A DNA stretch of 64,000 nt from an uncultured Clostridia bacterium. Lineage in GTDB: Bacteria > Bacillota > Clostridia > Oscillospirales > Acutalibacteraceae. Location of the stretch: assembly GCA_947644325.1 (NCBI GenBank), contig CANRZD010000001.1, positions 6,810 through 70,809 on the forward strand, in the 5' to 3' direction. Below the pieces are notes generated by a model. The model was not told the DNA's origin. It did not search any database and was given only the letters and a program-made list of their open reading frames with translations. Positions 9,529 to 24,203 of this stretch are shown piece after piece. Position 1 is the first letter of the stretch. Every line of letters begins with the position of its first letter. The position numbers were made by a program, and so were the translations under genes.

Positions 9529-12500
9529 TTACTTCACCTGGACCACCGGCAGGGTGTCGCCGCCGGGGCTGTCCATCCACAGGGTGCGGGCGGTGGGCCG
9601 CTGGCCCCCCGCGCCGGTGGCGCTGTCCGTGCGGTACATCTCCACCATGACCTGGCTGGGCAGAAGGTTCGCCCCGTCGCAGTGGGTCACGTCCTGCAGC
9701 TCGGCTTCCTTCTGCACGTTTGGCACAAAGAGGAACAACCCGTCGCTGATATCGCTGACCTGCTGGTCCTCGGGTATCTCCGCAAAGAGCAGGGCGTAGC
9801 CGTCTATGGGCCGGTTCTCTTCCGCGACCACCAGCTTCTCCGCGCCGTTGTCGTCTACCACGGTCTTGGTGGTGGTGAATTTCCCCCATACCTTTAGGGT
9901 GTTGAACACCGGGTCGCCCCGGTAGGTGCCCATGATGACAAGGGTCCCGGCGGGTATCACTTCGTTGTCATAGCGGTAGTCTTCGGCCAGCCGCCCCATG
10001 AAGCCGCCTTCCTCCGTGCGGAAGGAGACGTCGTCCCCCGCATAGCTGATGAGCCCAATGTCCTTGTCCTGCAGGCCCGCGGGCAGGCCGGTGATGGTGA
10101 CGGTCTTGGCGTCGTAGGTCCATATGCGGGTGTCGGTGCTGCTCGTGCCGGGCTTATTAAAGTATGTCAGGTAGCAGTTTTGGTCGTCCACCGCTTGGTT
10201 GCCCGTGGAGAAATTCCCCTGCCGGGCCTGCACCCGGGTGCCGTCTGATTGGGTGACGGTCACGGTGAAGCCGCCGCTTGCGGGCCGGTTCCCGCCGCTC
10301 AGCTTTATGCCGGAAACGCTCGTCTCGCTATGAAGGGTGATAGTGGCCGTATCCCCGCTGCGGCTGATGGAATAGCTGGAGCTGGGCACGGTCTTGTCGT
10401 AGGCGATGCGCACCTGCCCGGCCTGGGCCCGGCCGATCTCATTGCCCAGGGTGCTGTAGGCTGTTACAGAGTAGCTGAAGGTCAGGTGGTTCCCCGCTGC
10501 GATGGTGTCGGTGTAGGTGACGCCCCCGGCCTTGTGGGGCACAAAGGCAATGGGCTTGCCCTCCCGCAAAATCTCATACCCCTGGATGCAGGGGGCGCTG
10601 GGCGGGGTGATATTGATCTCGATCTCTGTGTCGCTGCCCGCCTTTTTGGCCGCCGTGGCCGAGAAGGAGGCCGCGTGGCTGGCCGCGCCCTGCAGGCGGT
10701 CCCGGCGGCTCTGGTCGTTTAAGTACCAGATGGCCCGGGCCTCCTTGGGGTAGCTCGATAGCTTCCGCTTGGCGGCGTCGCCCAGTACCAAGCCCCAGCG
10801 GGTGAAGAACTCGCTTAAATCCTTCTGGGCCACCCCGGCGGCGGTGAGGGCCACCTTCTCGTCGTAGGTGGGGGAGGGCACGTCCCCCAAATAGGTCCCC
10901 GCCTTCCAGGCCTTGAAGAACTGGTTGTAGAACTCCGTAGGCGTCTGCTCATCGTAGGCCAGATGCAGCTGCCAGTACATGCCCAGTTGCACGAACACGT
11001 CGTTGGAAGCCCCGGGCAGGCCCTGGGCCACCTTGTTGAAGACGGCGTTATACTTGCCGCTCTTTTCCAGGCGCGAGGGCAGGATGCCTTTTCCTCCGTC
11101 GTAGGTCTGCACCATAAGGGCGTAAATGTTGTTGGTGATCTCCGCCTTGCCCAGCTTATCCATGTTGTGGCCAATCTCATGGGCAATGCCCCAGCCGAAG
11201 AGGCTGTTGGCCTGGGCGGAGGCAGGCAGCTTCGAAATGGGCGAGCCGGTGCACAGCCCCGCGCAGGAGGCGTACCCCACGCCGATGTGGTTTCCGGCGG
11301 CGTACATGAAGGCCCCGGAGAACATCTGCATGCAGCGGATGTTCTGGCGGGTCTGCATGTCGCTGCCGTCAATGCCCTGGGTGGCGCTGCAGATGCGGGT
11401 GATGTCCTCCCAGGCCAGCACCGTGTCGTAAAGGGTGTTCACAATACTCCCGCTGGGGGCGCTGTTTTTCACCGCCAGGGCGGGCAGGGACAAAAGCACC
11501 GAAGGGGTGGATATTTCCGTCACGTTGAGGCACTTTGTGGCCTTGTTTGCCTCTGTGGCCCCCAGCTTGCCTACATAGCCGTTAAGCTCCGTCACGTAGG
11601 CGCTGATGACCTCCCGGCGGGCGGCGTCGCTCATGGTGCGCCAGCCGTCCAGGGCCAGCACGGGCATATCTGCAGCCCTGCGCACATGGAGCTTCACCAT
11701 GGCGGCGTTGGAGCCCCCGTAGGTCACGTAGAGGCTGCCGCCCCGCTCCGTGCTCTGGCTGCCGATCTTCGGCACCGTAAGGGTGTTGCGGCCGTTTGTG
11801 AGGGTGCCCATCTTGGCCCGCCAAGTAGAGGCCTCGGCGTTAAACTGGGTGGCGTACACGGTCACGGTCTCCCCGGCCGGTATGCCGGCGGCGTAGACGG
11901 TGATCTCCTGCCCGGCCCTGGCGGCCACGCCCAGGGGCTGCAGCTCGCTGCCGGACTGCTTGTACTTCTGGCTGTCCGCACTGGCGCTGCGGGCCTGCAG
12001 GCCGTCTATGATGACGCCAGAGGAGGAGCCGGAAAGCAGCTCCTGGGCCAGGTCCAGCTCGTCCTTCAGGGTGTTTATATCCAGGTAATAGAAGCGCTCG
12101 TCGCTGTTTAAGCGGGTGCGCAGGACCGAGATGGTCTGGGTGGTCACGTGGCTTCGCAGCTGGGTGCGCAGCTCGTTTGCGAAAAGGGCGCTGATCTCGT
12201 CGGGCAGGCAGCGGGCGGGGTCGTACTCCATAAAGGAGAGCTGGGAGCAGCTGGTGATGTTGTAGGCGTCCTGCTCCACGGCCACGCTGATCTGCCGCAC
12301 CTGCCGCTGGGCCCCGAAGGGCAGTATGGCGAACTTCGACGTGGGGATGGCGTTCTTATTGGGGATGTTGGGCCAGGTGAACACGTCGCCGCCGTCGGTG
12401 TTGCCGTTATTGTCCTTGCCGCCCTTGTCCGGGTCGGGCACGATCAAATGCCCCGGGCCGCTTAGATCCTCCCCCTCGTACCACACCTGCACGCTGTAGG

Positions 12501-14466
12501 CCCGCAGGAACTTAGGGTAATTCCCGTCCAGCCGGGGGGACCACAGCACGGCCTGCAGGTCCACGGGCTCCTTGAAGGTGGTGATGACGTGCTCGTTGCC
12601 GTGCCAGTTGGCGGCGGTCCAGTGGGTGCGGTAGTCGCCGTCTATCATGTTTTCCGGGGAGAAGGGCTTGTCGGCGCTGTACTCCGCCGCCGCGTAGTTG
12701 CGGGGGGCCCCCAGGCGTATGCTCTCTATCTTCTCCCGGCCCAGAAGCCCGGAGGTGGGAAGCCCCGCCGGGCGGTCGTAGGCCACGGCCTTGGGGGTGC
12801 CCTCGGCAACGCGGGAGGCCCCGCTCTTCCCGGCGTCGTTGCCGGCTATGACGTAAAGCTGGTAGGCGGTGCCGTTTTTCAGGCTGGAGATCTGGGTGCT
12901 GGTGCCCCGCAGGCTGCCGCCCACCTGCTGGTAGGGGGCGTTCTCCGCCTTTTCTTTATAGAACACCTCATAGTAGGTGGCGGACTTGGACTGCTTCCAG
13001 GAAATGCCCAGGGCCCCCTCCAGCTCTGTGACCTGCACCATGTCCGGGGCGTCGGGCCGGCGGCTGGGCTGGGGGGTGGCGTCCACAGCCGGGCAGGCTT
13101 CGCCCTCCCAGCCCTCGGCGGTGGGGGTCACGGTGAACCAGTATTTCTTAAGGTTCTCAAGCCCCGTCACCTCCGCGTAAGGGGTCATGACGCTGAGGCT
13201 CTTTTTCGCGCCGCCATCGGCCCAGTAGTCCACCCGGTAGCCGGTGACGTTTGGCACCTCCCGCCACTTGAGGGCGGCCTTCTCATGGCCCGCCGCGGCC
13301 GTAAGGCCCGTGACCTGGCGGTTGGGGGCCATGGGGTTTTCGGGCACGATGTCCTTTAGGAACTGGATGGTCTCCACCACCACAAAGCCCCCCGGGGCCT
13401 TGTCCACGGAGATGGTCACTTTCTTCACAGGCACCCGCCTGCCCAGTTCCAGGGTGTTGGTGCGCACCCCCTCGGTGCGGGCGATGGCGTAGACCCCCGC
13501 AGGCAGCGCGGCGCTGAAGGACAGGGCCTCGCTCTGTCCGTCGGTGTATTCGATAACGGCCCGGCCGCTTTCCAGCCCGCCGTTTTCCGGGGCGTTCAGG
13601 GCGATCTGGGCCATTTCCACGGGGCTGGCCCCAAAGTCGATGGGCAGAGAAAGGCTCTCCCCCTGAGAGCCCAGTTTGACGGCCCGGCCGTTATCAGAGA
13701 ACAAATCTGCCAAGGCCCCTTCCGTAGCATAAGCGCCCCCGGACGCCAGGGCCTGCATGTCCACAGGCGGGCTCAGAAGGGCCGTGTCCTTGATCTCCGC
13801 GCCGCCCTGGGCGTTTATGTTCTGGTTTACGTACACCAGGTCCGAAAGCCCGATGGCGTCGTCCCCGTCCAGGTCATAAGCAGCGTACAGGCTGCGGTCC
13901 CCAGAGCCCAGGCGCTGGGAGAGAAGGTCCCGGTCTATCTCGTTCACACGGCCGTCGCCGTTGAAGTCGCCTAAAGTAAAGGTGGCGTCCCCCGTGCCCA
14001 GGATCAGGTGCTTCGAGTGGGTCTGCAGGGGGATGCTGTAGGAAAAGGCTTTGTAGCCGGAGCCCGTGAACTTCAGCACGTAGTTGCCCCGGGGCAGGTT
14101 CCCGATGGAAAGGGTCACGTACCGGGGCCAGCCGGAGGTATCCTCCCCGCCGTCGCTGTTCTTGAGCTCTACAGACGCCGGGTACGGCCCCACAGACTGA
14201 GCGCCCGTGTCCCACAGCCGGGCCTCTCCCACCTGGCTACCGTTTTGAAACAGGGCGGCCCTTACGGCGTGGTTCTGCAGGGCGGTGCGCCGCTGGGCGT
14301 AGTCCAGCCGCAGGGTGGCCTGTATCTCCCCCAGGGTGGAGGCGTCCTCCAGGCTGGGCGCGGCTTCCGGCAGGAATTCGTCCTCCATGGCCCAGGCGGG
14401 GGCGCAGCAGGTAAGCGCCAGGACCGCCGCCAGAAGGACGCTGCAAAGTCGTTTCACAAGCTTCAT
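9529..14466 (-). CDS. Secreted M60-like (enhancin/mucin) zinc metallopeptidase with dockerin, FN3 and CBM32/discoidin-like modules
   Basis: WGIAHEIGH (11167-11181) plus downstream AEITNN gluzincin ligand; M60_N-like ELQPLGVAARAGQEITVY; two EF-hand-like dockerin repeats; FN3 motifs LKWREVPNVTGYRVDY and ISWKQSKSATYYEVFY. Confidence 0.9.
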   Translation of the reverse strand: MKLVKRLCSVLLAAVLALTCCAPAWAMEDEFLPEAAPSLEDASTLGEIQATLRLDYAQRRTALQNHAVRAALFQNGSQVGEARLWDTGAQSVGPYPASVELKNSDGGEDTSGWPRYVTLSIGNLPRGNYVLKFTGSGYKAFSYSIPLQTHSKHLILGTGDATFTLGDFNGDGRVNEIDRDLLSQRLGSGDRSLYAAYDLDGDDAIGLSDLVYVNQNINAQGGAEIKDTALLSPPVDMQALASGGAYATEGALADLFSDNGRAVKLGSQGESLSLPIDFGASPVEMAQIALNAPENGGLESGRAVIEYTDGQSEALSFSAALPAGVYAIARTEGVRTNTLELGRRVPVKKVTISVDKAPGGFVVVETIQFLKDIVPENPMAPNRQVTGLTAAAGHEKAALKWREVPNVTGYRVDYWADGGAKKSLSVMTPYAEVTGLENLKKYWFTVTPTAEGWEGEACPAVDATPQPSRRPDAPDMVQVTELEGALGISWKQSKSATYYEVFYKEKAENAPYQQVGGSLRGTSTQISSLKNGTAYQLYVIAGNDAGKSGASRVAEGTPKAVAYDRPAGLPTSGLLGREKIESIRLGAPRNYAAAEYSADKPFSPENMIDGDYRTHWTAANWHGNEHVITTFKEPVDLQAVLWSPRLDGNYPKFLRAYSVQVWYEGEDLSGPGHLIVPDPDKGGKDNNGNTDGGDVFTWPNIPNKNAIPTSKFAILPFGAQRQVRQISVAVEQDAYNITSCSQLSFMEYDPARCLPDEISALFANELRTQLRSHVTTQTISVLRTRLNSDERFYYLDINTLKDELDLAQELLSGSSSGVIIDGLQARSASADSQKYKQSGSELQPLGVAARAGQEITVYAAGIPAGETVTVYATQFNAEASTWRAKMGTLTNGRNTLTVPKIGSQSTERGGSLYVTYGGSNAAMVKLHVRRAADMPVLALDGWRTMSDAARREVISAYVTELNGYVGKLGATEANKATKCLNVTEISTPSVLLSLPALAVKNSAPSGSIVNTLYDTVLAWEDITRICSATQGIDGSDMQTRQNIRCMQMFSGAFMYAAGNHIGVGYASCAGLCTGSPISKLPASAQANSLFGWGIAHEIGHNMDKLGKAEITNNIYALMVQTYDGGKGILPSRLEKSGKYNAVFNKVAQGLPGASNDVFVQLGMYWQLHLAYDEQTPTEFYNQFFKAWKAGTYLGDVPSPTYDEKVALTAAGVAQKDLSEFFTRWGLVLGDAAKRKLSSYPKEARAIWYLNDQSRRDRLQGAASHAASFSATAAKKAGSDTEIEINITPPSAPCIQGYEILREGKPIAFVPHKAGGVTYTDTIAAGNHLTFSYSVTAYSTLGNEIGRAQAGQVRIAYDKTVPSSSYSISRSGDTATITLHSETSVSGIKLSGGNRPASGGFTVTVTQSDGTRVQARQGNFSTGNQAVDDQNCYLTYFNKPGTSSTDTRIWTYDAKTVTITGLPAGLQDKDIGLISYAGDDVSFRTEEGGFMGRLAEDYRYDNEVIPAGTLVIMGTYRGDPVFNTLKVWGKFTTTKTVVDDNGAEKLVVAEENRPIDGYALLFAEIPEDQQVSDISDGLFLFVPNVQKEAELQDVTHCDGANLLPSQVMVEMYRTDSATGAGGQRPTARTLWMDSPGGDTLPVVQVK

Positions 14467-16497: not shown

Positions 16498-17763
16498 ATG
16501 ACATTCCTGCTAAAACGCGCCCGCATCCTGGACCCCTCCCAAAAGCTTGACATGGTGGGGGACATCCTTCTGAAGGACGGGAAGATAGCCGAGATAGGGG
16601 AGGACCTTTTCCACCGCATGGCCGAGGCCCATGAGGTGTTGGACTGCGCCGGGCTCACAGCCGCGCCGGGCCTTGTTGACATGCACGTGCACCTGCGGGA
16701 CCCGGGGCTCACCTATAAGGAAGATTTGTTTTCGGCCTGCCGGGCTGCGGCGGCGGGCGGGGTCACGAGCCTTCTGGCCATGCCCAACACCCGGCCCCCC
16801 ATGGACGAGCCCGATATGGTGCGGGAGCTTTTGGAGCGGGCGGACGCAAACGTCTACACCTGCGCCTGCGTCACAAAGGGCATGAAGGGGGAATCGCTCA
16901 CTGACTTTGCCGCCCTGAAAGCGGCCGGGGCCATCGCTCTCAGCGATGACGGCGTGCCCGTGGGCAGCGCCCGCCTGCTGCTGGAGGCCCTGGAGAAGGC
17001 CCCGGGCCTGGGCCTTACAATCTGCGTCCACTGTGAAGATCTGGACCTGGCAAAGGGCGGCCTTATGCACAAGGGCGCGGTGTCAGAGAAACTGGGGGTG
17101 CCGGGCATCCCCCGGGCTGCCGAGGACTGCGGCACCGCCCGGGAGCTGGCGGCGGCGGCCTCCATCGGCGCGCCCATCCACATCTGCCACGTGAGCACAA
17201 GGGGCTCGGCAGAGCTGATACGGGACTATAAACGTCGGGGCCTGCCCGTCACGGCGGAGACCTGCCCCCACTACCTGCTGCTCACCCACGAAGCCCTGGG
17301 CGGGCGGGACGCCGACTTCCGCATGAACCCGCCCCTGCGCACGGAGGATGACCGCCGGGCCCTTATAGAAGCCCTGAAGGACGGCGTCGTCGACGCCGTC
17401 TCTACGGACCACGCCCCCCACAGCCCCAAGGAGAAGGCGGACTTCCTCGCCGCCCCCAACGGCTCCATCGGTATGGAGACCTCCCTTTGCGCGGCACTGA
17501 CGGCTCTGGAGGGGGAGCTGACGCTCATGGAGATTCTGGAAAAAATGAGCACGGCCCCGGCCCGCATCCTGGGCATCCCCGGGGGCACCCTGGCGGCGGG
17601 GGCCCCGGCGGATGTAGTTCTCTTTGACCCCCAGGGCCACTGGACCGTGGACCCGGAGAAGCTGCACGGCAAAAGCCGCAACACGCCCTTTAAGGGCATG
17701 ACCCTGCGGGGACGGGTGCTTGCCACCTTCTGCCGGGGGAGAAAAGTGTTTGATGACCGATAA
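16498..17763 (+). CDS. pyrC: Dihydroorotase
   Basis: PGLVDMHVHLRDPG, AMPNT, VHCED, HICHVST, ETCPHYL, MNPPLR, TDHAPH. Confidence 0.95.
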   Translation: MTFLLKRARILDPSQKLDMVGDILLKDGKIAEIGEDLFHRMAEAHEVLDCAGLTAAPGLVDMHVHLRDPGLTYKEDLFSACRAAAAGGVTSLLAMPNTRPPMDEPDMVRELLERADANVYTCACVTKGMKGESLTDFAALKAAGAIALSDDGVPVGSARLLLEALEKAPGLGLTICVHCEDLDLAKGGLMHKGAVSEKLGVPGIPRAAEDCGTARELAAAASIGAPIHICHVSTRGSAELIRDYKRRGLPVTAETCPHYLLLTHEALGGRDADFRMNPPLRTEDDRRALIEALKDGVVDAVSTDHAPHSPKEKADFLAAPNGSIGMETSLCAALTALEGELTLMEILEKMSTAPARILGIPGGTLAAGAPADVVLFDPQGHWTVDPEKLHGKSRNTPFKGMTLRGRVLATFCRGRKVFDDR

Positions 17764-17790
17764 CATTTATCATAAAAAGGAGTGCTTACA

Positions 17791-18732
17791 ATGTCAATGG
17801 ACAGGCTGCTGGAAAAAATGGCCGAAAAGCAAAACCCCACCGTGGCGGGCCTGGACCCCAAGCTCAGCTATATCCCCGAGTATATGCGGGAGGAGAGCTT
17901 CGGGAAATACGGAAAGACCCTGGAGGGCGCGGCGGACGCGCTGCTCTCTTTCAACAAGGGGCTCATAGACGCCCTGTGCGACATCGTGCCGGCGGTAAAG
18001 CCCCAGGCGGCCTACTATGAGATGTACGGCTGGCAGGGGGTGCGGGCCCTGTGCGGCACCATCGCCTACGCCAAGAGCAAGGGGATGTTCGTCATCACCG
18101 ACGGCAAGCGCAACGACATCGGCGCAACTATGCAGGCCTACGCCAGCGCCCACCTGGGGGAGACCGACGTGGACGGCGAGGCCTTTGAGGCCTTTGGCGC
18201 GGACGCCCTGACGGTAAACGGCTACCTGGGCACCGACGGCATCGAGCCCCTTCTGCAGGTGTGCGCGGGCAGGGACAAGGGCATCTTCGTGCTGGTGAAG
18301 ACCTCGAACCCCTCCTCCGGGGAGTTCCAGGACCAGATGATGCACGCCATGTACGAGCCCCTTTACCGGGCCATGGGCAATATGTGCCAGCAGTGGGGGT
18401 TAAAGCTCCCCGGGAAATACGGCTACAGCGGCGTGGGGGCCGTGGTGGGGGCCACCTACCCCAAGCAGCTTCATGAGCTGCGCAGGGCCCTGCCCAACAC
18501 CCTGTTCCTGGTGCCGGGCTACGGGGCCCAGGGCGGGGCCGCAGAGGACGTGGCCCAGGGCTTTGACAAAAACGGCCTTGGCGCCATCGTCAATTCCTCC
18601 CGGGGCATCATGTGCGCCTGGCAGAAGGAGGGCTGCGCACCCGAAGACTTCGCCCACGCCGCCCGCCGGGAGGCCCTGCGCATGCGCGACGAGATCATGG
18701 GCTGCGTAGGGAAGATCGCCCTGCCCCAGTAA
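17791..18732 (+). CDS. pyrF: Orotidine-5'-phosphate decarboxylase (type 2)
   Basis: GLDP, VKPQAAYYE, DGKRNDIG, LVKTSNP, GAVVGAT, LVPGYGAQG, NSSRGI. Confidence 0.95.
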   Translation: MSMDRLLEKMAEKQNPTVAGLDPKLSYIPEYMREESFGKYGKTLEGAADALLSFNKGLIDALCDIVPAVKPQAAYYEMYGWQGVRALCGTIAYAKSKGMFVITDGKRNDIGATMQAYASAHLGETDVDGEAFEAFGADALTVNGYLGTDGIEPLLQVCAGRDKGIFVLVKTSNPSSGEFQDQMMHAMYEPLYRAMGNMCQQWGLKLPGKYGYSGVGAVVGATYPKQLHELRRALPNTLFLVPGYGAQGGAAEDVAQGFDKNGLGAIVNSSRGIMCAWQKEGCAPEDFAHAARREALRMRDEIMGCVGKIALPQ

Positions 18733-18742
18733 AGGAGGCCCT

Positions 18743-19504
18743 ATGAAAAAATTTGATTCGCTGCCCTGCCGCCTGTACACGGCCCGCAGGCTCACAGCAG
18801 ACGTGTTCGACTTTTGGTTTGAGTGCCCGGCCTTCGCAGAAGGGGCCCTGCCCGGCCAGTTTGCCCAGATACGCCTGCCCGGGCACACCCTGCGCCGGCC
18901 CATCTCCATCTGCGGCATAGACAAAGAGCGGGGCATGCTGCGCTTTGTGTTCCAGATACGGGGCGGGGGCACGGCGGAACTGGCGGAATGCGAGCCCGGG
19001 GACGAGCTGGAAATTTTAGCCCCCCTGGGCTGGGGCTTCCCCATCGATAAAACGAAACGGACCCTGCTCATAGGCGGGGGCATCGGCGTGCCGCCCCTTT
19101 TGGGCTGCGCGGCGGGGCTTAGGGAGAAGGCCGCCGCCTGCCTGGGCTTTCGGAATCGAGACGCGGTGATCCTGGAGGAAGACTTCAAAGGGCTGGGGGC
19201 CCGGGTGTCCATCGCCACCGACGACGGCTCTTACGGCCACAAGGGCCTTGTGACAGGGCTTGCGGAAAAGGAAGACTTCGACGTGATCTTCGCCTGCGGC
19301 CCCACCCCCATGCTGAAAGCCGCCAAGGCCCTGGGCGAGAGCCGGGGCGTGCCCTGCTTCCTCTCCTTAGAGGAGCGCATGGCCTGCGGCATCGGGGCCT
19401 GCTTAGGGTGCGCCACGCCCCTTCTGGGGGAGGACGGCGCGCCGTACTTCGGCCACGTGTGCAAGGACGGCCCGGTGTTCGACAGCCGCCGCGTAGAACT
19501 GTAA
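18743..19504 (+). CDS. pyrK: Dihydroorotate dehydrogenase electron transfer subunit
   Basis: PGQF, LRRPISI, GGGIGVPP, ACGPTPM, EERMACGIGACLGC, VCKDGPVF. Confidence 0.95.
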   Translation: MKKFDSLPCRLYTARRLTADVFDFWFECPAFAEGALPGQFAQIRLPGHTLRRPISICGIDKERGMLRFVFQIRGGGTAELAECEPGDELEILAPLGWGFPIDKTKRTLLIGGGIGVPPLLGCAAGLREKAAACLGFRNRDAVILEEDFKGLGARVSIATDDGSYGHKGLVTGLAEKEDFDVIFACGPTPMLKAAKALGESRGVPCFLSLEERMACGIGACLGCATPLLGEDGAPYFGHVCKDGPVFDSRRVEL

Positions 19505-19516
19505 AGGAGGGGCCCT

Positions 19517-21025
19517 ATGATTATCTTGTGTTCCAACGGCCTGACAAGCGGGGAACTGCTGCAAGAGGCGGGGAAATACGCGAAAAAAGGGGGAAAGGCC
19601 GCCCTTATCGTCACCGCCGACCCCCAGTATAAAGAAAAGAACTACCACGTGGACCGCTGCCTGCGGGCGCTCTCTTATCTGGGCCTGGAGGCCGATGTCT
19701 TTGACTTCGATACCCAGCCCGCCGAGGCTCTTTCCCAGTACGACGTGGCGGAGCTCATAGGCGGCAACCCCTACTACCTGCTGGATTCCATCCGAAAGCA
19801 TGACGCCGGGGACGCTTTGGGCCGCATCGCCCGGGAGGGCCTTCTCATCGGCTGGAGCGCCGGGGCCCTGGTGCTGCAGAAGACCATCGCCCTTATCGGG
19901 TCCTATCTTCCGCAGCTCAACTTCCTGGGCCTTCAGGACCTCACCGGCCTGGGCCTTACGGACATCCAGATTCTGCCCCACTACAGCAAGCAGCTGAAGA
20001 AGGACGCATCAGTAGAGGAGAAGTGCCAAAAGTACGAAAGAGACAACCACTGTACCGTGCTCCGCCTGAACGACGGGGAAGGGGTGGTGCTGGAGGAGGA
20101 GCCCCGGGTGGTGCGCTGCTCCATGAAGGTGGAGGTGGCCGGGGTGGAATTCCAGAACCCCCTCATCGCCGCCTCGGGCACCTTCGGCTTCGGAAGGGAG
20201 TTTAGCGAGCTCTATCCCCTGTCGGTACTGGGGGGCGTCTCCTGCAAGGGTATCACAATCAAGGAGCGCCCCGGCAACCCGCCGCCCCGGGTCACCGAAG
20301 CCCCCGGGGGCATGCTCAACGCCGTGGGCCTGCAGAACCCCGGGGTGGACCATTTCATAAAGGAAGACCTGCCCTGGCTCTCTAGGCAAGGCACCCGGGT
20401 CATCGCCAACGTGGCGGGCAGCACCCCGGAGGACTACTGCGAAACCGCCGAGAAGCTGGGCGGCACCAGCGTGGACATGATAGAGCTCAACATTTCCTGC
20501 CCCAACGTGAAGCAGGGGGGCGTGCAGTTCGGCACCACCGCCCGGGGGGTGGAGGATATCACCAAAGCCGTGCGGAAGCACTGTAAAAAGCCCTTGATGG
20601 TAAAGCTCTCCCCCAATGTCACCGACATCTCGGAAATGGCCCTGGCGGCCGAGGCGGCGGGGGCCGACGCGGTGTCTCTCATCAACACCCTTACGGGCAT
20701 GCGCATCGACATCCGCACCCGCCGCCCCATCATCCGCAACAACACCGGGGGCTTCTCGGGCCCGGCCCTTCTGCCCATCGCCCTGCGCATGGTGTGGCAG
20801 ACGGCCCAGAAGGTGAAGATCCCCATTGTGGGCCTGGGTGGCATCTCCACCTGGCAGGACGCCGTGGAGATGCTCTTGGCCGGGGCCACGGCCCTGCAGA
20901 TCGGCACCGTGCTCTTTACAGAACCCTACGCGCCCATAAAGATCGCCCAGGGCCTTCGGGCCTTCATGGAGGAGCAGGGCATTAAAGACCTCGGTGAGCT
21001 GACGGGGGGTGTTCGCCCGTGGTGA
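19517..21025 (+). CDS. pyrD: In-frame fusion of an S51 (peptidase E-like) domain to dihydroorotate dehydrogenase 1B catalytic subunit
   Basis: N-half GGNPYYL, GWSAGA, LPHY; C-half from about 20123 NPLIAASGTFG, NAVGLQNPG, ELNISCPNV, VKLSPN, INT, GGFSG. No stop codon between the halves. Confidence 0.9.
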   Translation: MIILCSNGLTSGELLQEAGKYAKKGGKAALIVTADPQYKEKNYHVDRCLRALSYLGLEADVFDFDTQPAEALSQYDVAELIGGNPYYLLDSIRKHDAGDALGRIAREGLLIGWSAGALVLQKTIALIGSYLPQLNFLGLQDLTGLGLTDIQILPHYSKQLKKDASVEEKCQKYERDNHCTVLRLNDGEGVVLEEEPRVVRCSMKVEVAGVEFQNPLIAASGTFGFGREFSELYPLSVLGGVSCKGITIKERPGNPPPRVTEAPGGMLNAVGLQNPGVDHFIKEDLPWLSRQGTRVIANVAGSTPEDYCETAEKLGGTSVDMIELNISCPNVKQGGVQFGTTARGVEDITKAVRKHCKKPLMVKLSPNVTDISEMALAAEAAGADAVSLINTLTGMRIDIRTRRPIIRNNTGGFSGPALLPIALRMVWQTAQKVKIPIVGLGGISTWQDAVEMLLAGATALQIGTVLFTEPYAPIKIAQGLRAFMEEQGIKDLGELTGGVRPW

Positions 21026-21693
21026 CTACCGTGTACCTAGTCCGCCACTGTCAGTCCATGGGGAATATCCAGCACCGCTTCCAGGGGCGGTTCGACGCGG
21101 ACGTGAGTCCCCAGGGGCAGGAGCAGCTGGCCTTATTGGGCCTGCGCTTTCGCAATGAGAGCATAGACCGCATCATAACAAGCCCCCTGAAGCGGGCCAA
21201 GGCCACGGCCCTGGCCATCGCCCAGTACCACCCCCAGGTGCCCCTTGCGGAGGACCCGGGCTTTCTGGAGATCGACTGCGGGGACATGGAGAACCTTCTT
21301 CTTACTGACGTAGCCAAGCGCTTCCCCGAAACCGCCCGCCACTGGAACGAATCCCCGGACCTGTGCCGCTTCCCCCACGGGGAGACCATGGAGCAGGTCT
21401 ACGCCCGGGTGAACGCCGCCCTGGACCGGGCCATCGCGGAGAACGGGGGGAAGACCATCGTCATCACCACCCACGGCGGGGTGCTGCGCAATCTCTACGC
21501 CCGGGTGTCAATGGGCTCCCTTTCGGGCATCCGGCAGACAGAGGTCTTCGGCAACACCGGCGTCAGCATACTGGAGGCAGAGGACGGGGCCCTGCGCTGG
21601 AAAATGGTCAACGACCTTTCCCATCTGCCCGAGGAGCTGCGCCGGCCCCCTACGAAGTTTGCCTTCTATTTAGAGGGGGGCGAGCCCATATGA
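21019..21693 (+). CDS. Histidine phosphatase (phosphoglycerate mutase-like) family protein
   Basis: YLVRHCQS, SPLKRAKAT, EIDCG, FPHGE, TTHGGVLR; start may be the GTG at 21022. Confidence 0.85.
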   Translation: MVTTVYLVRHCQSMGNIQHRFQGRFDADVSPQGQEQLALLGLRFRNESIDRIITSPLKRAKATALAIAQYHPQVPLAEDPGFLEIDCGDMENLLLTDVAKRFPETARHWNESPDLCRFPHGETMEQVYARVNAALDRAIAENGGKTIVITTHGGVLRNLYARVSMGSLSGIRQTEVFGNTGVSILEAEDGALRWKMVNDLSHLPEELRRPPTKFAFYLEGGEPI

Positions 21694-22171: not shown

Positions 22172-23734
22172 TTACTTTAGCGGCACCTCCACGCCGTTTA
22201 CCGTCACAGAGGTGATCGCTTCCGGCTCCACCGGCATCTCCAGCAGGTAGCGGGCGGACATGCGCCCCTGCCCGTCGGGCACGATGGTGTACCCGCGTTT
22301 CACCAGCGTGCACTCCTGCGCGCCCGCCGCTGTCTCCACGGTGATGGTCAGCTTCGAAACATCCGGCGCAAAGCGCTTGAGCACGCCGTCTATTTCCAGG
22401 GTCTCGTCCTCCGGCACGGCAGGGCGGGAGACCGTCACCCCAAAGGGCGTGACCCGCAGGCCGTCAAAGGTGGAGGGGGCCCAGGTGGAGTCAAAGTCCG
22501 CCTCCTCGTCGAAGTTTTCGGGCAGGTGCAGGGTCTCCACGTCCACGGTGAAGGGGGCGGCGTTCTGCCGCATGGAAAGGCCCTCTACGCTCAGGGTGAA
22601 GCTCTGGCTCCAGGTGTCTTCCAGGATGGGCTCGGCCCGCACCAGGCCGAAGCCCCACTGCCAGAAGGCAAGCGCGTCTTTTGGCAGCTTGCTGATGATT
22701 TCTACATACGCATAGCCCATTTTGGCGTCCAAGACGCTTTCTGTTTCCTGTAAGAACGGATCGTAAAAATCCACCACCTGGCCGTCCGTGAGATTGAAGA
22801 GCGTGTCAAAGGCAGCGTCGCTATAAGACTGGTTGGGCTCGAAGGCGGGGTCCGAGCAGGACATGCCCTCTTGCAGCAGGGCCGTGGTCCCCGGCTCCTT
22901 CACGTGAAACTGCACGTGGAGCTTTCCGTCCACATAGCCCGCCCCACTGAGGCTTACGCCCTCCACGCCGGGGATGGGCCGGTCTTCACCGGGAACCAGC
23001 AATGTCACCGTGCCCGCCTGGGAGATGGTGTTGTAGCGGGCCTCCCAGCTCTGGGCCAGGGTGTCCATATAGCCGGGCATGGTGTAAGTGAGGGTGGGCG
23101 CGTCTTCCGCCAAGCCCAGCTCCTCCAGGGCCAGGGTGAAGCGCTCTGTAAAGGGGTCGGTACCATCGTCCCCTCCTGCCCGGCTGCACACGCCTGTAAT
23201 GGTCAAGGTGGCCTCGCTGCCGTCGATGCCGTCAGGCACGTTTATGCTCTGGCAGAACACGGCCGCGCCGTTCTCCCTGTCAAAGAACACGGGGCAGGCG
23301 GACACGGGCACGGCCTTGTCTCCCACCCGAAGCTCGCCTATGGCCAGCATGTTTTCGCCCATGCGGCCCTCCGGGTCTGAAAGGGAGAAGTAGATCTCCG
23401 CGTTGTCCCGGTCCGCGGCCACCGCCTGCACCTGCAGGGGCTGCGGCGCGCTGTCAGGCGTCTCCGGGGCCGGGGCGGCTCCGACCTTCTGCACCCGCTG
23501 GCCGTAGCGGCCGGTGAGCTCCTCCCAGAAGGCGCCCAGCCCGGGCGCGGCGGCCACCGCCGTCAGGGACAGGCACACCACCAGTACCGCCGCCAGCCCC
23601 ACCGCCGCCAGCCGTCTCCTGGGCAGGCGGGCGGGCCTCGTGCGTTTCCCTTCCATTTTGCGCAGGGTCATGCGCACCAGGCGCTGGTCCGGCATGAGCT
23701 TTTCGTTCATGGATTCATAAGTCTGCTTAAACAT
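22172..23734 (-). CDS. Putative anti-sigma factor (DUF4179-like), single TM with large extracellular region
   Basis: Short cytoplasmic N-terminus, TM LAAVGLAAVLVVCLSLTAVAA; overlaps the ECF sigma gene. Confidence 0.7.
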   Translation of the reverse strand: MFKQTYESMNEKLMPDQRLVRMTLRKMEGKRTRPARLPRRRLAAVGLAAVLVVCLSLTAVAAAPGLGAFWEELTGRYGQRVQKVGAAPAPETPDSAPQPLQVQAVAADRDNAEIYFSLSDPEGRMGENMLAIGELRVGDKAVPVSACPVFFDRENGAAVFCQSINVPDGIDGSEATLTITGVCSRAGGDDGTDPFTERFTLALEELGLAEDAPTLTYTMPGYMDTLAQSWEARYNTISQAGTVTLLVPGEDRPIPGVEGVSLSGAGYVDGKLHVQFHVKEPGTTALLQEGMSCSDPAFEPNQSYSDAAFDTLFNLTDGQVVDFYDPFLQETESVLDAKMGYAYVEIISKLPKDALAFWQWGFGLVRAEPILEDTWSQSFTLSVEGLSMRQNAAPFTVDVETLHLPENFDEEADFDSTWAPSTFDGLRVTPFGVTVSRPAVPEDETLEIDGVLKRFAPDVSKLTITVETAAGAQECTLVKRGYTIVPDGQGRMSARYLLEMPVEPEAITSVTVNGVEVPLK

Positions 23735-24203
23735 GCTCTAAACCCTCCTCTTCTATGAGTTCCTTCATCATGCGCCGGGCCCGCTCCAGCTGCTTGCGCA
23801 CGGCCCCGGGGGTGCTGCCCGTCACCCGGGCGATCTCCCCGGCGGGCATGTCCTCCCAGTAGAACAGGTGCAGCACGGCCCGGTATTTCTTTGGCAGCTT
23901 TGACAGCTCCCGGTGCAGGTCCCACTGGTCCCGGGTCTCAAAGGGCAGGCTCTCATCCAGCGGCACGTCCCTTTTGCGCCAGGGGGCCCGCCACACATTG
24001 CGGCAGCAGTTGAGGGTCACCCGCAGGAACCAGGCCTTTTCGTGCTCCGGGCTTTCAAATTCCGGCCCCTTCTCTACAAAGCGCAGGAACACCTCCTGGA
24101 ACACGTCCTCGGCGTCCGCCTGGCTGCGCAGCTGGGCGAAGGCCAGCCGGTACACGCTGGGCCCCTGCCGGGCGACGACCTCTTCGTCTCTTTGAACACT
24201 CAC
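23727..24203 (-). CDS. ECF RNA polymerase sigma factor
   Basis: DAEDVFQEVFL, AWFLRVTLNCC, LPKKYRAVLHLFYWED..EIA..VRKQLERAR. Confidence 0.92.
   Translation of the reverse strand: MSVQRDEEVVARQGPSVYRLAFAQLRSQADAEDVFQEVFLRFVEKGPEFESPEHEKAWFLRVTLNCCRNVWRAPWRKRDVPLDESLPFETRDQWDLHRELSKLPKKYRAVLHLFYWEDMPAGEIARVTGSTPGAVRKQLERARRMMKELIEEEGLEHV

Follow-up and report, generated by a model that had tools for sequence, protein, structure and literature searches.

Does an open reading frame (ORF) that joins a serine-hydrolase domain to a dihydroorotate dehydrogenase (DHODH) encode one genuine protein and, if so, what is a hydrolase doing in front of an enzyme of pyrimidine synthesis? We addressed this question for a 64,000-nucleotide stretch of DNA from an uncultured Clostridia bacterium of the family Acutalibacteraceae (assembly GCA_947644325.1, contig CANRZD010000001.1, positions 6,810 to 70,809; hereafter the window), in which positions 19517-21025 encode, in a single frame, an N-terminal domain of peptidase family S51 and a C-terminal PyrD. 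An earlier interpretation made from the letters alone (the sequence-only reading) had taken this in-frame fusion to be either a functional link, with peptidase E (PepE) supplying aspartate for the pyrimidine ring, or a captured gene that replaced the start of pyrD. We conclude that the fusion is real, that it arose by gene capture, and that its N-terminal half is probably a captured accessory hydrolase which would still be active and would be co-expressed and co-translated with PyrD rather than catalytically coupled to it.

The same architecture recurs well beyond the window. With the S51 part as query against a collection of 5.8 billion proteins, and candidate length limited to that of the whole protein, we found about 57 protein clusters of 496-505 amino acids that share the S51 plus DHO_dh architecture, with S51 identities down to 49%. 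An S51-domain profile was also scanned against 185,579 species, each represented by one genome, and the loci were then analyzed by tblastn; the arrangement pyrC-pyrF-pyrK-[S51::pyrD]-hisP, with the fusion in one open frame, was present in 23 further species. The window genome belongs to a genus (as delimited in GTDB) of mouse-gut Acutalibacter-type bacteria in which fused and unfused alleles coexist: 24 of its 58 species, the window genome included, carry the S51 domain and 34 do not. Among the carriers are the cultured isolates Acutalibacter caecimuris M00118, A. intestini M00204, Neglectibacter caecimuris M00184 and Neglectibacter sp. X58. Throughout the genus the domain lies in a frame of at least 500 amino acids together with PyrD, except for one copy that is ended by a contig edge. 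No further S51-PyrD fusion was found in 300 genomes of the family (185 genera) or in the 185,579-species scan. Free-standing S51 homologues are common in gut Clostridia; at 57 such loci the protein has 198-212 amino acids (mostly 200-201), is 49-58% identical and has no pyr gene within 6 kb. An architecture shared by about 57 clusters and 24 species excludes chance and misassembly, and the in-frame fusion first noticed in a single sequence is therefore real. Both families that compose it are known, but their combination is a new domain architecture, restricted to some species of a single genus, and a literature search found no paper on an S51-PyrD fusion.

The fusion is read from one uninterrupted frame with a well-placed Shine-Dalgarno site, as the sequence-only reading had proposed, and the 23 related fused loci have comparable AGGAG-type sites ahead of their S51 start codons. 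It is the sole PyrD of the 1.99-Mb draft genome (136 contigs). The claim that its PyrD half is complete also held, with only the ancestral M-A-D missing: Pfam DHO_dh matches amino acids 203-484 over profile positions 2-291 of 291 (286.8 bits), and the NCBIfam models PRK07259 (NF005574; 426.3 bits against 269) and TIGR01037 (366.1 bits against 270) agree (profile positions 4-302 of 304). In Foldseek this half, a TIM-barrel fold, matched chain A of the Lactococcus lactis dihydroorotate dehydrogenase B (DHODB) structures 1ep3_A and 5ksw_A with 48-49% identity and a TMt of 0.82, and the likeness extends to the adjoining upstream PyrK and to the cysteine of the NISCPN motif. This residue, Cys328, is invariant in 30 fusion proteins, and we take it to be the catalytic base of class-1 DHODH. 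In class-1B enzymes the flavin mononucleotide (FMN) subunit PyrD oxidizes dihydroorotate and the electrons then pass to PyrK. By its sequence the C-terminal half is clearly such an FMN subunit, predicted to oxidize dihydroorotate and to hand the electrons to PyrK in an NAD-linked class-1B DHODH. Where other class-1B PyrD proteins have their first three residues, the fusion has a 202-residue S51 domain, and most of its members lack a start codon of their own for PyrD.

The N-terminal half belongs to family S51. Pfam Peptidase_S51 (PF03575; MEROPS S51) matches amino acids 23-195 with 63.3 bits against a cut-off of 23.9, and the three motifs recognized earlier, GGN (amino acids 82-84), GWSAG (112-116) and LPHY (153-156), are all present and conserved. 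The family assignment thus stood, but the label peptidase E that came with it was too specific, as the PepE equivalog model (NCBIfam NF003642, EC 3.4.13.21) scored 36.7-39.1 bits, below its cut-off of 156. In PepE the catalytic triad consists of Ser120, His157 and Glu192 (PMC9239234), and in the fused domain the position of Glu192 is taken by Asp186, so that the Ser-His-Glu triad of PepE is not found here. Ser114, His155 and Asp186 are invariant in 54-74 fused and free-standing sequences, and Glu188 is variable; a profile alignment with Salmonella PepE puts the three invariant residues on Ser120, His157 and Glu192, respectively. An AlphaFold2 (AF2) model of the domain had a predicted local distance difference test (pLDDT) score of 95.2, and the best 20 Foldseek matches to it were all S51 structures, with template modeling (TM) scores of 0.81 for Lmo0363 (3L4E), 0.78-0.79 for DR_1070 (6IRU), ∼0.75 for Xenopus PepE, 0.66-0.69 for Salmonella PepE and ∼0.65-0.71 for cyanophycinase. 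Model and matches support the S51 fold, which is alpha/beta and class-I glutamine-amidotransferase-like. By sequence and model, the N-terminal half is a short S51-family hydrolase domain with a Ser-His-Asp triad, and it is no PepE equivalog.

Its nearest likenesses are Lmo0363 (3L4E) and DR_1070 (6IRU/6A4T), which share the ∼200-residue fold at 23-25% identity and are also its best profile matches (79 and 58 bits, respectively). DR_1070 has an Asp at the third triad position, as the fused domain does; Lmo0363 has an Asn there, and both proteins are free-standing, unlike the fused domain. PepE of Salmonella and Escherichia coli (1FY2, 6A4R), an alpha-aspartyl dipeptidase, has the same family and fold, and its Ser, His and acid align with those of the fused domain; the latter, however, has Asp rather than Glu as the acid, is ∼30 residues shorter and is ∼22% identical. 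The clade of MccG and Bacillus subtilis PepE (PMC9239234) resembles this S51 subfamily in having a Ser-His-Asp triad and in consisting mostly of lone genes, but as that triad is common to MccG clade V and DR_1070, it is not diagnostic for the fused domain. When we compared the fused genes pairwise by the Nei-Gojobori method, the median ratio of nonsynonymous to synonymous substitution rates (dN/dS) was 0.18 in the S51 half (closest pairs 0.08-0.14) and 0.11 in the PyrD half. An invariant triad together with a dN/dS of ∼0.18 indicates that the hydrolase half is under selection. The genome also holds a second, free-standing S51 protein of 199 amino acids (contig C41 of G000, L123:1489-2088, plus strand) with GGGN, GGSAGA and CHY motifs; it is 25% identical to the fused domain, and its best PDB match is likewise Lmo0363.

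Comparison with relatives points to where the fusion came from. In unfused congeners pyrK is followed by a gap of 25-35 nucleotides and then by pyrD, this S51 is missing, and PyrD starts with M-A-D-L-[K/R]-V-x-V-A-G-V. Free-standing S51 proteins stop right after their last beta-strand, and amino acids 1-202 of the fusion are as long as a whole free-standing homologue of 200-201 residues. Aligned with both, the fusion reads as a complete S51 gene that lacks nothing but the stop codon and runs on into a pyrD without its first three codons (M-A-D). Of the two origins proposed by the sequence-only reading, it was the captured gene replacing the pyrD start that these comparisons bore out. A free-standing S51 gene landed in the ∼30-nucleotide spacer between pyrK and pyrD in one Acutalibacter-type genus; the S51 stop codon and pyrD codons 1-3 were then lost, which left PyrD to be translated from the start codon and Shine-Dalgarno sequence of the S51 gene. 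The fused allele has long been retained in 24 of the 58 species. Purifying selection acts on both of its halves, and recombination has probably carried the allele from one species to another or replaced it.

The history of the alleles was followed on two trees. On the S51 tree the fused sequences form one group (one change, with a weak support of 52) which, together with the shared junction, is consistent with a single capture. On a quick tree of the flanking genes, PyrK, PyrD and the histidine phosphatase HisP, the fused alleles are not monophyletic and require at least 6-7 state changes; a single clade of fused alleles on these genes was rejected by the approximately unbiased (AU) test (p = 0.00016), and loci L022 and L020 are placed differently on the two trees. 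Because the unfused alleles that are nested among fused ones retain the ancestral M-A-D/N start, we infer that members of the genus have exchanged alleles through homologous recombination; that precise deletions, occurring repeatedly, produced the patchy distribution is less likely. The locus thus offers a clean and datable case of the birth of a bifunctional enzyme, in which a small gene came to lie in an operon spacer and a stop codon and three further codons disappeared. As fused and unfused alleles coexist and several members are cultured mouse-gut isolates, it is also a natural experiment on whether the fusion is beneficial or tolerated, and it opens a way to the substrate of an uncharacterized but widespread subfamily of short S51 hydrolases of gut Clostridia.

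What would the captured domain do? All characterized S51 enzymes cut an amide bond that adjoins a free aspartyl group: PepE acts on Asp-X dipeptides, cyanophycinase on beta-Asp-Arg units, and MccG on aspartamidyl-nucleotides with a preference for cytidylates (PMC9239234). By analogy, the S51 half is probably still an active amide hydrolase whose substrate would have a free N-terminal aspartyl group. We infer that its tie to pyrimidine synthesis consists in co-expression with the pyr operon, not in catalytic coupling with PyrD. Several observations weigh against an accessory hydrolase that is active and uncoupled. Membership in the family is no guarantee of catalysis, since certain members of S51 lack peptidase activity according to Yagmurov et al. 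2022 (PMC9239234), and Lmo0363, a close relative by structure, carries Asn at the position of the triad acid. The fusion has been retained for long although one stop codon could split the genes again, so that it may be advantageous. The full-length AF2 model (pLDDT 84.2; predicted TM score, pTM, 0.82) is confident across the junction, with residues 190-210 at pLDDT 85-91 and no floppy linker, which might reflect a fixed and purposeful arrangement of the domains. Lastly, an independent S51::HAD-IA fusion joined at the same C-terminal point hints at a real link to nucleotides.

This last observation leads to the first of the alternatives, in which the S51 domain, like MccG, would cleave aspartyl- or aminoacyl-nucleotide toxins of the microcin C (McC) type, or by-products, as a house-cleaning or immunity function lodged in the pyr operon. 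MccG acts on an aspartyl group that an amide bond links to a nucleotide (PMC9239234), which provides a conceivable tie to nucleotide metabolism, and MccG shares with the fused domain the Ser-His-Asp triad and with its free-standing relatives the habit of a loner: the 57 free-standing loci have no conserved neighbors, the largest shared neighbor cluster comprising 3 loci. The pyr operons of relatives have gathered other small genes as well. One subclade of the genus has 1-3 tandem GNAT genes (Acetyltransf_3, RimJ/RimL-type) between pyrF and pyrK, in unfused operons (L107, L119) as well as in fused ones, and three fused loci have a Nudix hydrolase gene between pyrK and the fusion (Table 1), which makes the pyr operon of this genus look like a landing pad for small genes. 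Acetylation by a GNAT is a route of McC immunity (PMC9239234), and a related GNAT gene adjoins the free-standing S51 in L040, L042 and L055. The S51::HAD-IA fusions P0054 and P0103 are metagenomic proteins of 408-415 amino acids from other organisms; their N-terminal S51 part is of the same subfamily (53% identity; P0102, a separate protein call of 208 amino acids, is this S51 part alone), and their HAD part matches TIGR02253 and is weakly similar to YjjG or to pyrimidine nucleotidases. All of these specific nucleotidase matches fall below their cut-offs, however, and GNAT, Nudix and HAD proteins occur very commonly. The GNAT adjacency is limited to 3 of the 57 free-standing loci, the window itself has neither a GNAT nor a Nudix insert, no mcc-type genes lie near the fusion, and of the solved structures Lmo0363 and DR_1070 come closest, not a demonstrated MccG. 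We regard this reading as improbable, and we are just as doubtful of its extension, that the pyr operon of the genus would be a platform that gathers nucleotide house-cleaning or antibiotic-immunity genes (an MccG-like S51 that does not scavenge peptides, a RimL-type GNAT, a Nudix hydrolase and a histidine phosphatase). If it were true, the hydrolase would be assured of expression and retention by being fused to the essential PyrD, and the S51 enzymes of gut Clostridia would generally act on nucleotide-linked amino acids.

A second alternative is the metabolic coupling that the sequence-only reading had offered as a functional link: the domain would be an Asp-X dipeptidase that frees aspartate for carbamoyl-aspartate, and the fusion would tie salvage to pyrimidine synthesis. 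The recognition of an aspartyl group by all characterized S51 enzymes, the intact triad under selection, the position in a pyr operon and the confidently modeled junction all speak for it. PyrD, however, is not the step that uses aspartate; it acts two steps after PyrB, which is, and the pyr operon that carries the fusion contains no pyrB. The failure of the PepE model (39 bits against 156) also stands against a dipeptidase of this kind, 34 of the 58 congeners do without both the fusion and this S51, and neither pyr nor peptide-uptake genes are conserved next to the free-standing homologues. Nor did we find any PyrD column that tells fused from unfused genes apart, and so there is no sign of a co-adapted interface. 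The proposed link through aspartate was left unsupported by these results, and we consider it unlikely.

We prefer an accessory hydrolase that is made together with PyrD. In a third alternative, free PyrD would also or mainly be initiated at the internal ATG (position 20123) and the fusion protein would be a minor by-product. The window genome and 7 relatives do have an ATG at the junction, and RefSeq entries WP_237076128.1, WP_322183036.1 and WP_334464831.1, from such carriers, give a 300-residue PyrD called from it. Among the 24 fused genes, however, 8 have ATG at this position, 13 a Leu codon and 3 a Gln codon. Met203 aligns with Leu4 of the ancestral PyrD, and by this alignment the junction Met is a derived, conservative Leu-to-Met change; it arose in more than one branch, which may be read in favor of a start codon, but Met and Leu are conservative replacements for each other. 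None of the 8 genes with a junction ATG has a Shine-Dalgarno sequence within 5-12 nucleotides of it; in the window the only GGAGG-type run ends ∼21 nucleotides upstream, which agrees with the earlier remark that this Met has no well-spaced ribosome-binding site. A stop codon between the halves was found in no fused member. Since 16 of the 24 genes have Leu or Gln at the junction, PyrD there being necessarily a fusion, PyrD would normally be produced solely in fused form, and its separate translation from 20123, the case that the sequence-only reading had set against a fusion protein, cannot be the norm of the family. We give two products very little credence. In GenBank the records from metagenome-assembled genomes name the 502-residue protein simply dihydroorotate dehydrogenase, and between this automatic naming and the trimming in RefSeq the hydrolase domain is invisible in current records. 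That a missed stop codon or a frameshift joined two genes is scarcely credible, for although the genome is a 136-contig draft, the same open frame occurs in 24 species genomes, cultured isolates among them, on contigs of up to 580 kb and with saturated dS.

The features of the locus are collected in Table 1. The gene order is pyrC-pyrF-pyrK-[S51::pyrD]-histidine phosphatase-ruvX, and between 12 and 24 kb of the window no RNA leader or PyrR element matched Rfam at the gathering threshold. The histidine-phosphatase gene falls under all NCBIfam cut-offs, the best match being CobC-like (121 bits against 163). It follows unfused pyrD in congeners with an identical 7-nucleotide overlap, and in two further families belonging to the order (L121, L122) it likewise lies 3' of pyrD. 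A link between the S51 domain and this phosphatase was considered and rejected, because the phosphatase predates the fusion.

Table 1. Coordinates of the S51::pyrD fusion, of its parts and of associated genes. Positions are those of the window unless a locus (L) is named; aa, amino acids; OMP, orotidine 5'-monophosphate; FAD, flavin adenine dinucleotide; Fe-S, iron-sulfur.
Feature	Position	Strand	Remarks
pyrC (dihydroorotase), at the head of the operon's pyr genes	16498..17763	+	Pfam Amidohydro_1, DHOase; also conserved 5' of the fusion across related loci
pyrF (OMP decarboxylase)	17782..18732	+	Pfam OMPdecase, 86.9 bits
pyrK, FAD/Fe-S electron-transfer subunit of class-1B DHODH, partner of PyrD	18743..19504	+	Pfam DHODB_Fe-S_bind, FAD_binding_6
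Shine-Dalgarno AGGAGG of the fusion	19505..19510	+	6 nucleotides 5' of the ATG at 19517; abuts the pyrK stop codon (19502-19504)
S51::PyrD fusion ORF	19517..21025	+	502 aa plus TGA, one uninterrupted frame
S51-family serine-hydrolase domain, aa 1-202	19517..20122	+	Pfam PF03575
Ser114 codon AGC, GWSAG nucleophile	19856..19858	+	aligns with PepE Ser120; invariant in 74 sequences
His155 codon CAC, in LPHY	19979..19981	+	aligns with PepE His157; invariant
Asp186 codon GAC, probably the third residue of the triad	20072..20074	+	profile alignment onto PepE Glu192
Junction, last S51 strand VVLEEEPRVVRCS straight into PyrD	20084..20125	+	no linker between the domains
PyrD, catalytic FMN subunit of class-1B DHODH, aa 203-502	20123..21022	+	complete except for the ancestral M-A-D
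Cys328 codon, NISCPN motif	20498..20500	+	invariant in 30 fusion proteins
Histidine-phosphatase-family gene	21019..21693	+	Pfam His_Phos_1, 174.7 bits; 7-nucleotide overlap with the end of the fusion
GNAT inserts in fused operons	L019:2308-2838; L021, L026, L028:4098-5211; L037:4682-5212		Pfam Acetyltransf_3
Nudix hydrolase gene (∼150 aa) between pyrK and the fusion	L017:5518-5964; L020:5527-5973; L027:2187-2633		

Two other regions of the window drew our attention. Upstream of the pyr operon, on the minus strand, positions 9529-14466 encode a protein of 1644 amino acids with Peptidase_M60 (enhancin-like), fn3, F5/8 type C and dockerin domains, a candidate secreted degrader of mucin or other glycoproteins. 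Downstream, also on the minus strand, an ORF resembling a sigma factor of the extracytoplasmic function (ECF) type (23727-24203) is followed by an ORF of 520 amino acids (22172-23734), which has an N-terminal stretch like a membrane anchor and no Pfam match and looks like an anti-sigma-type protein.

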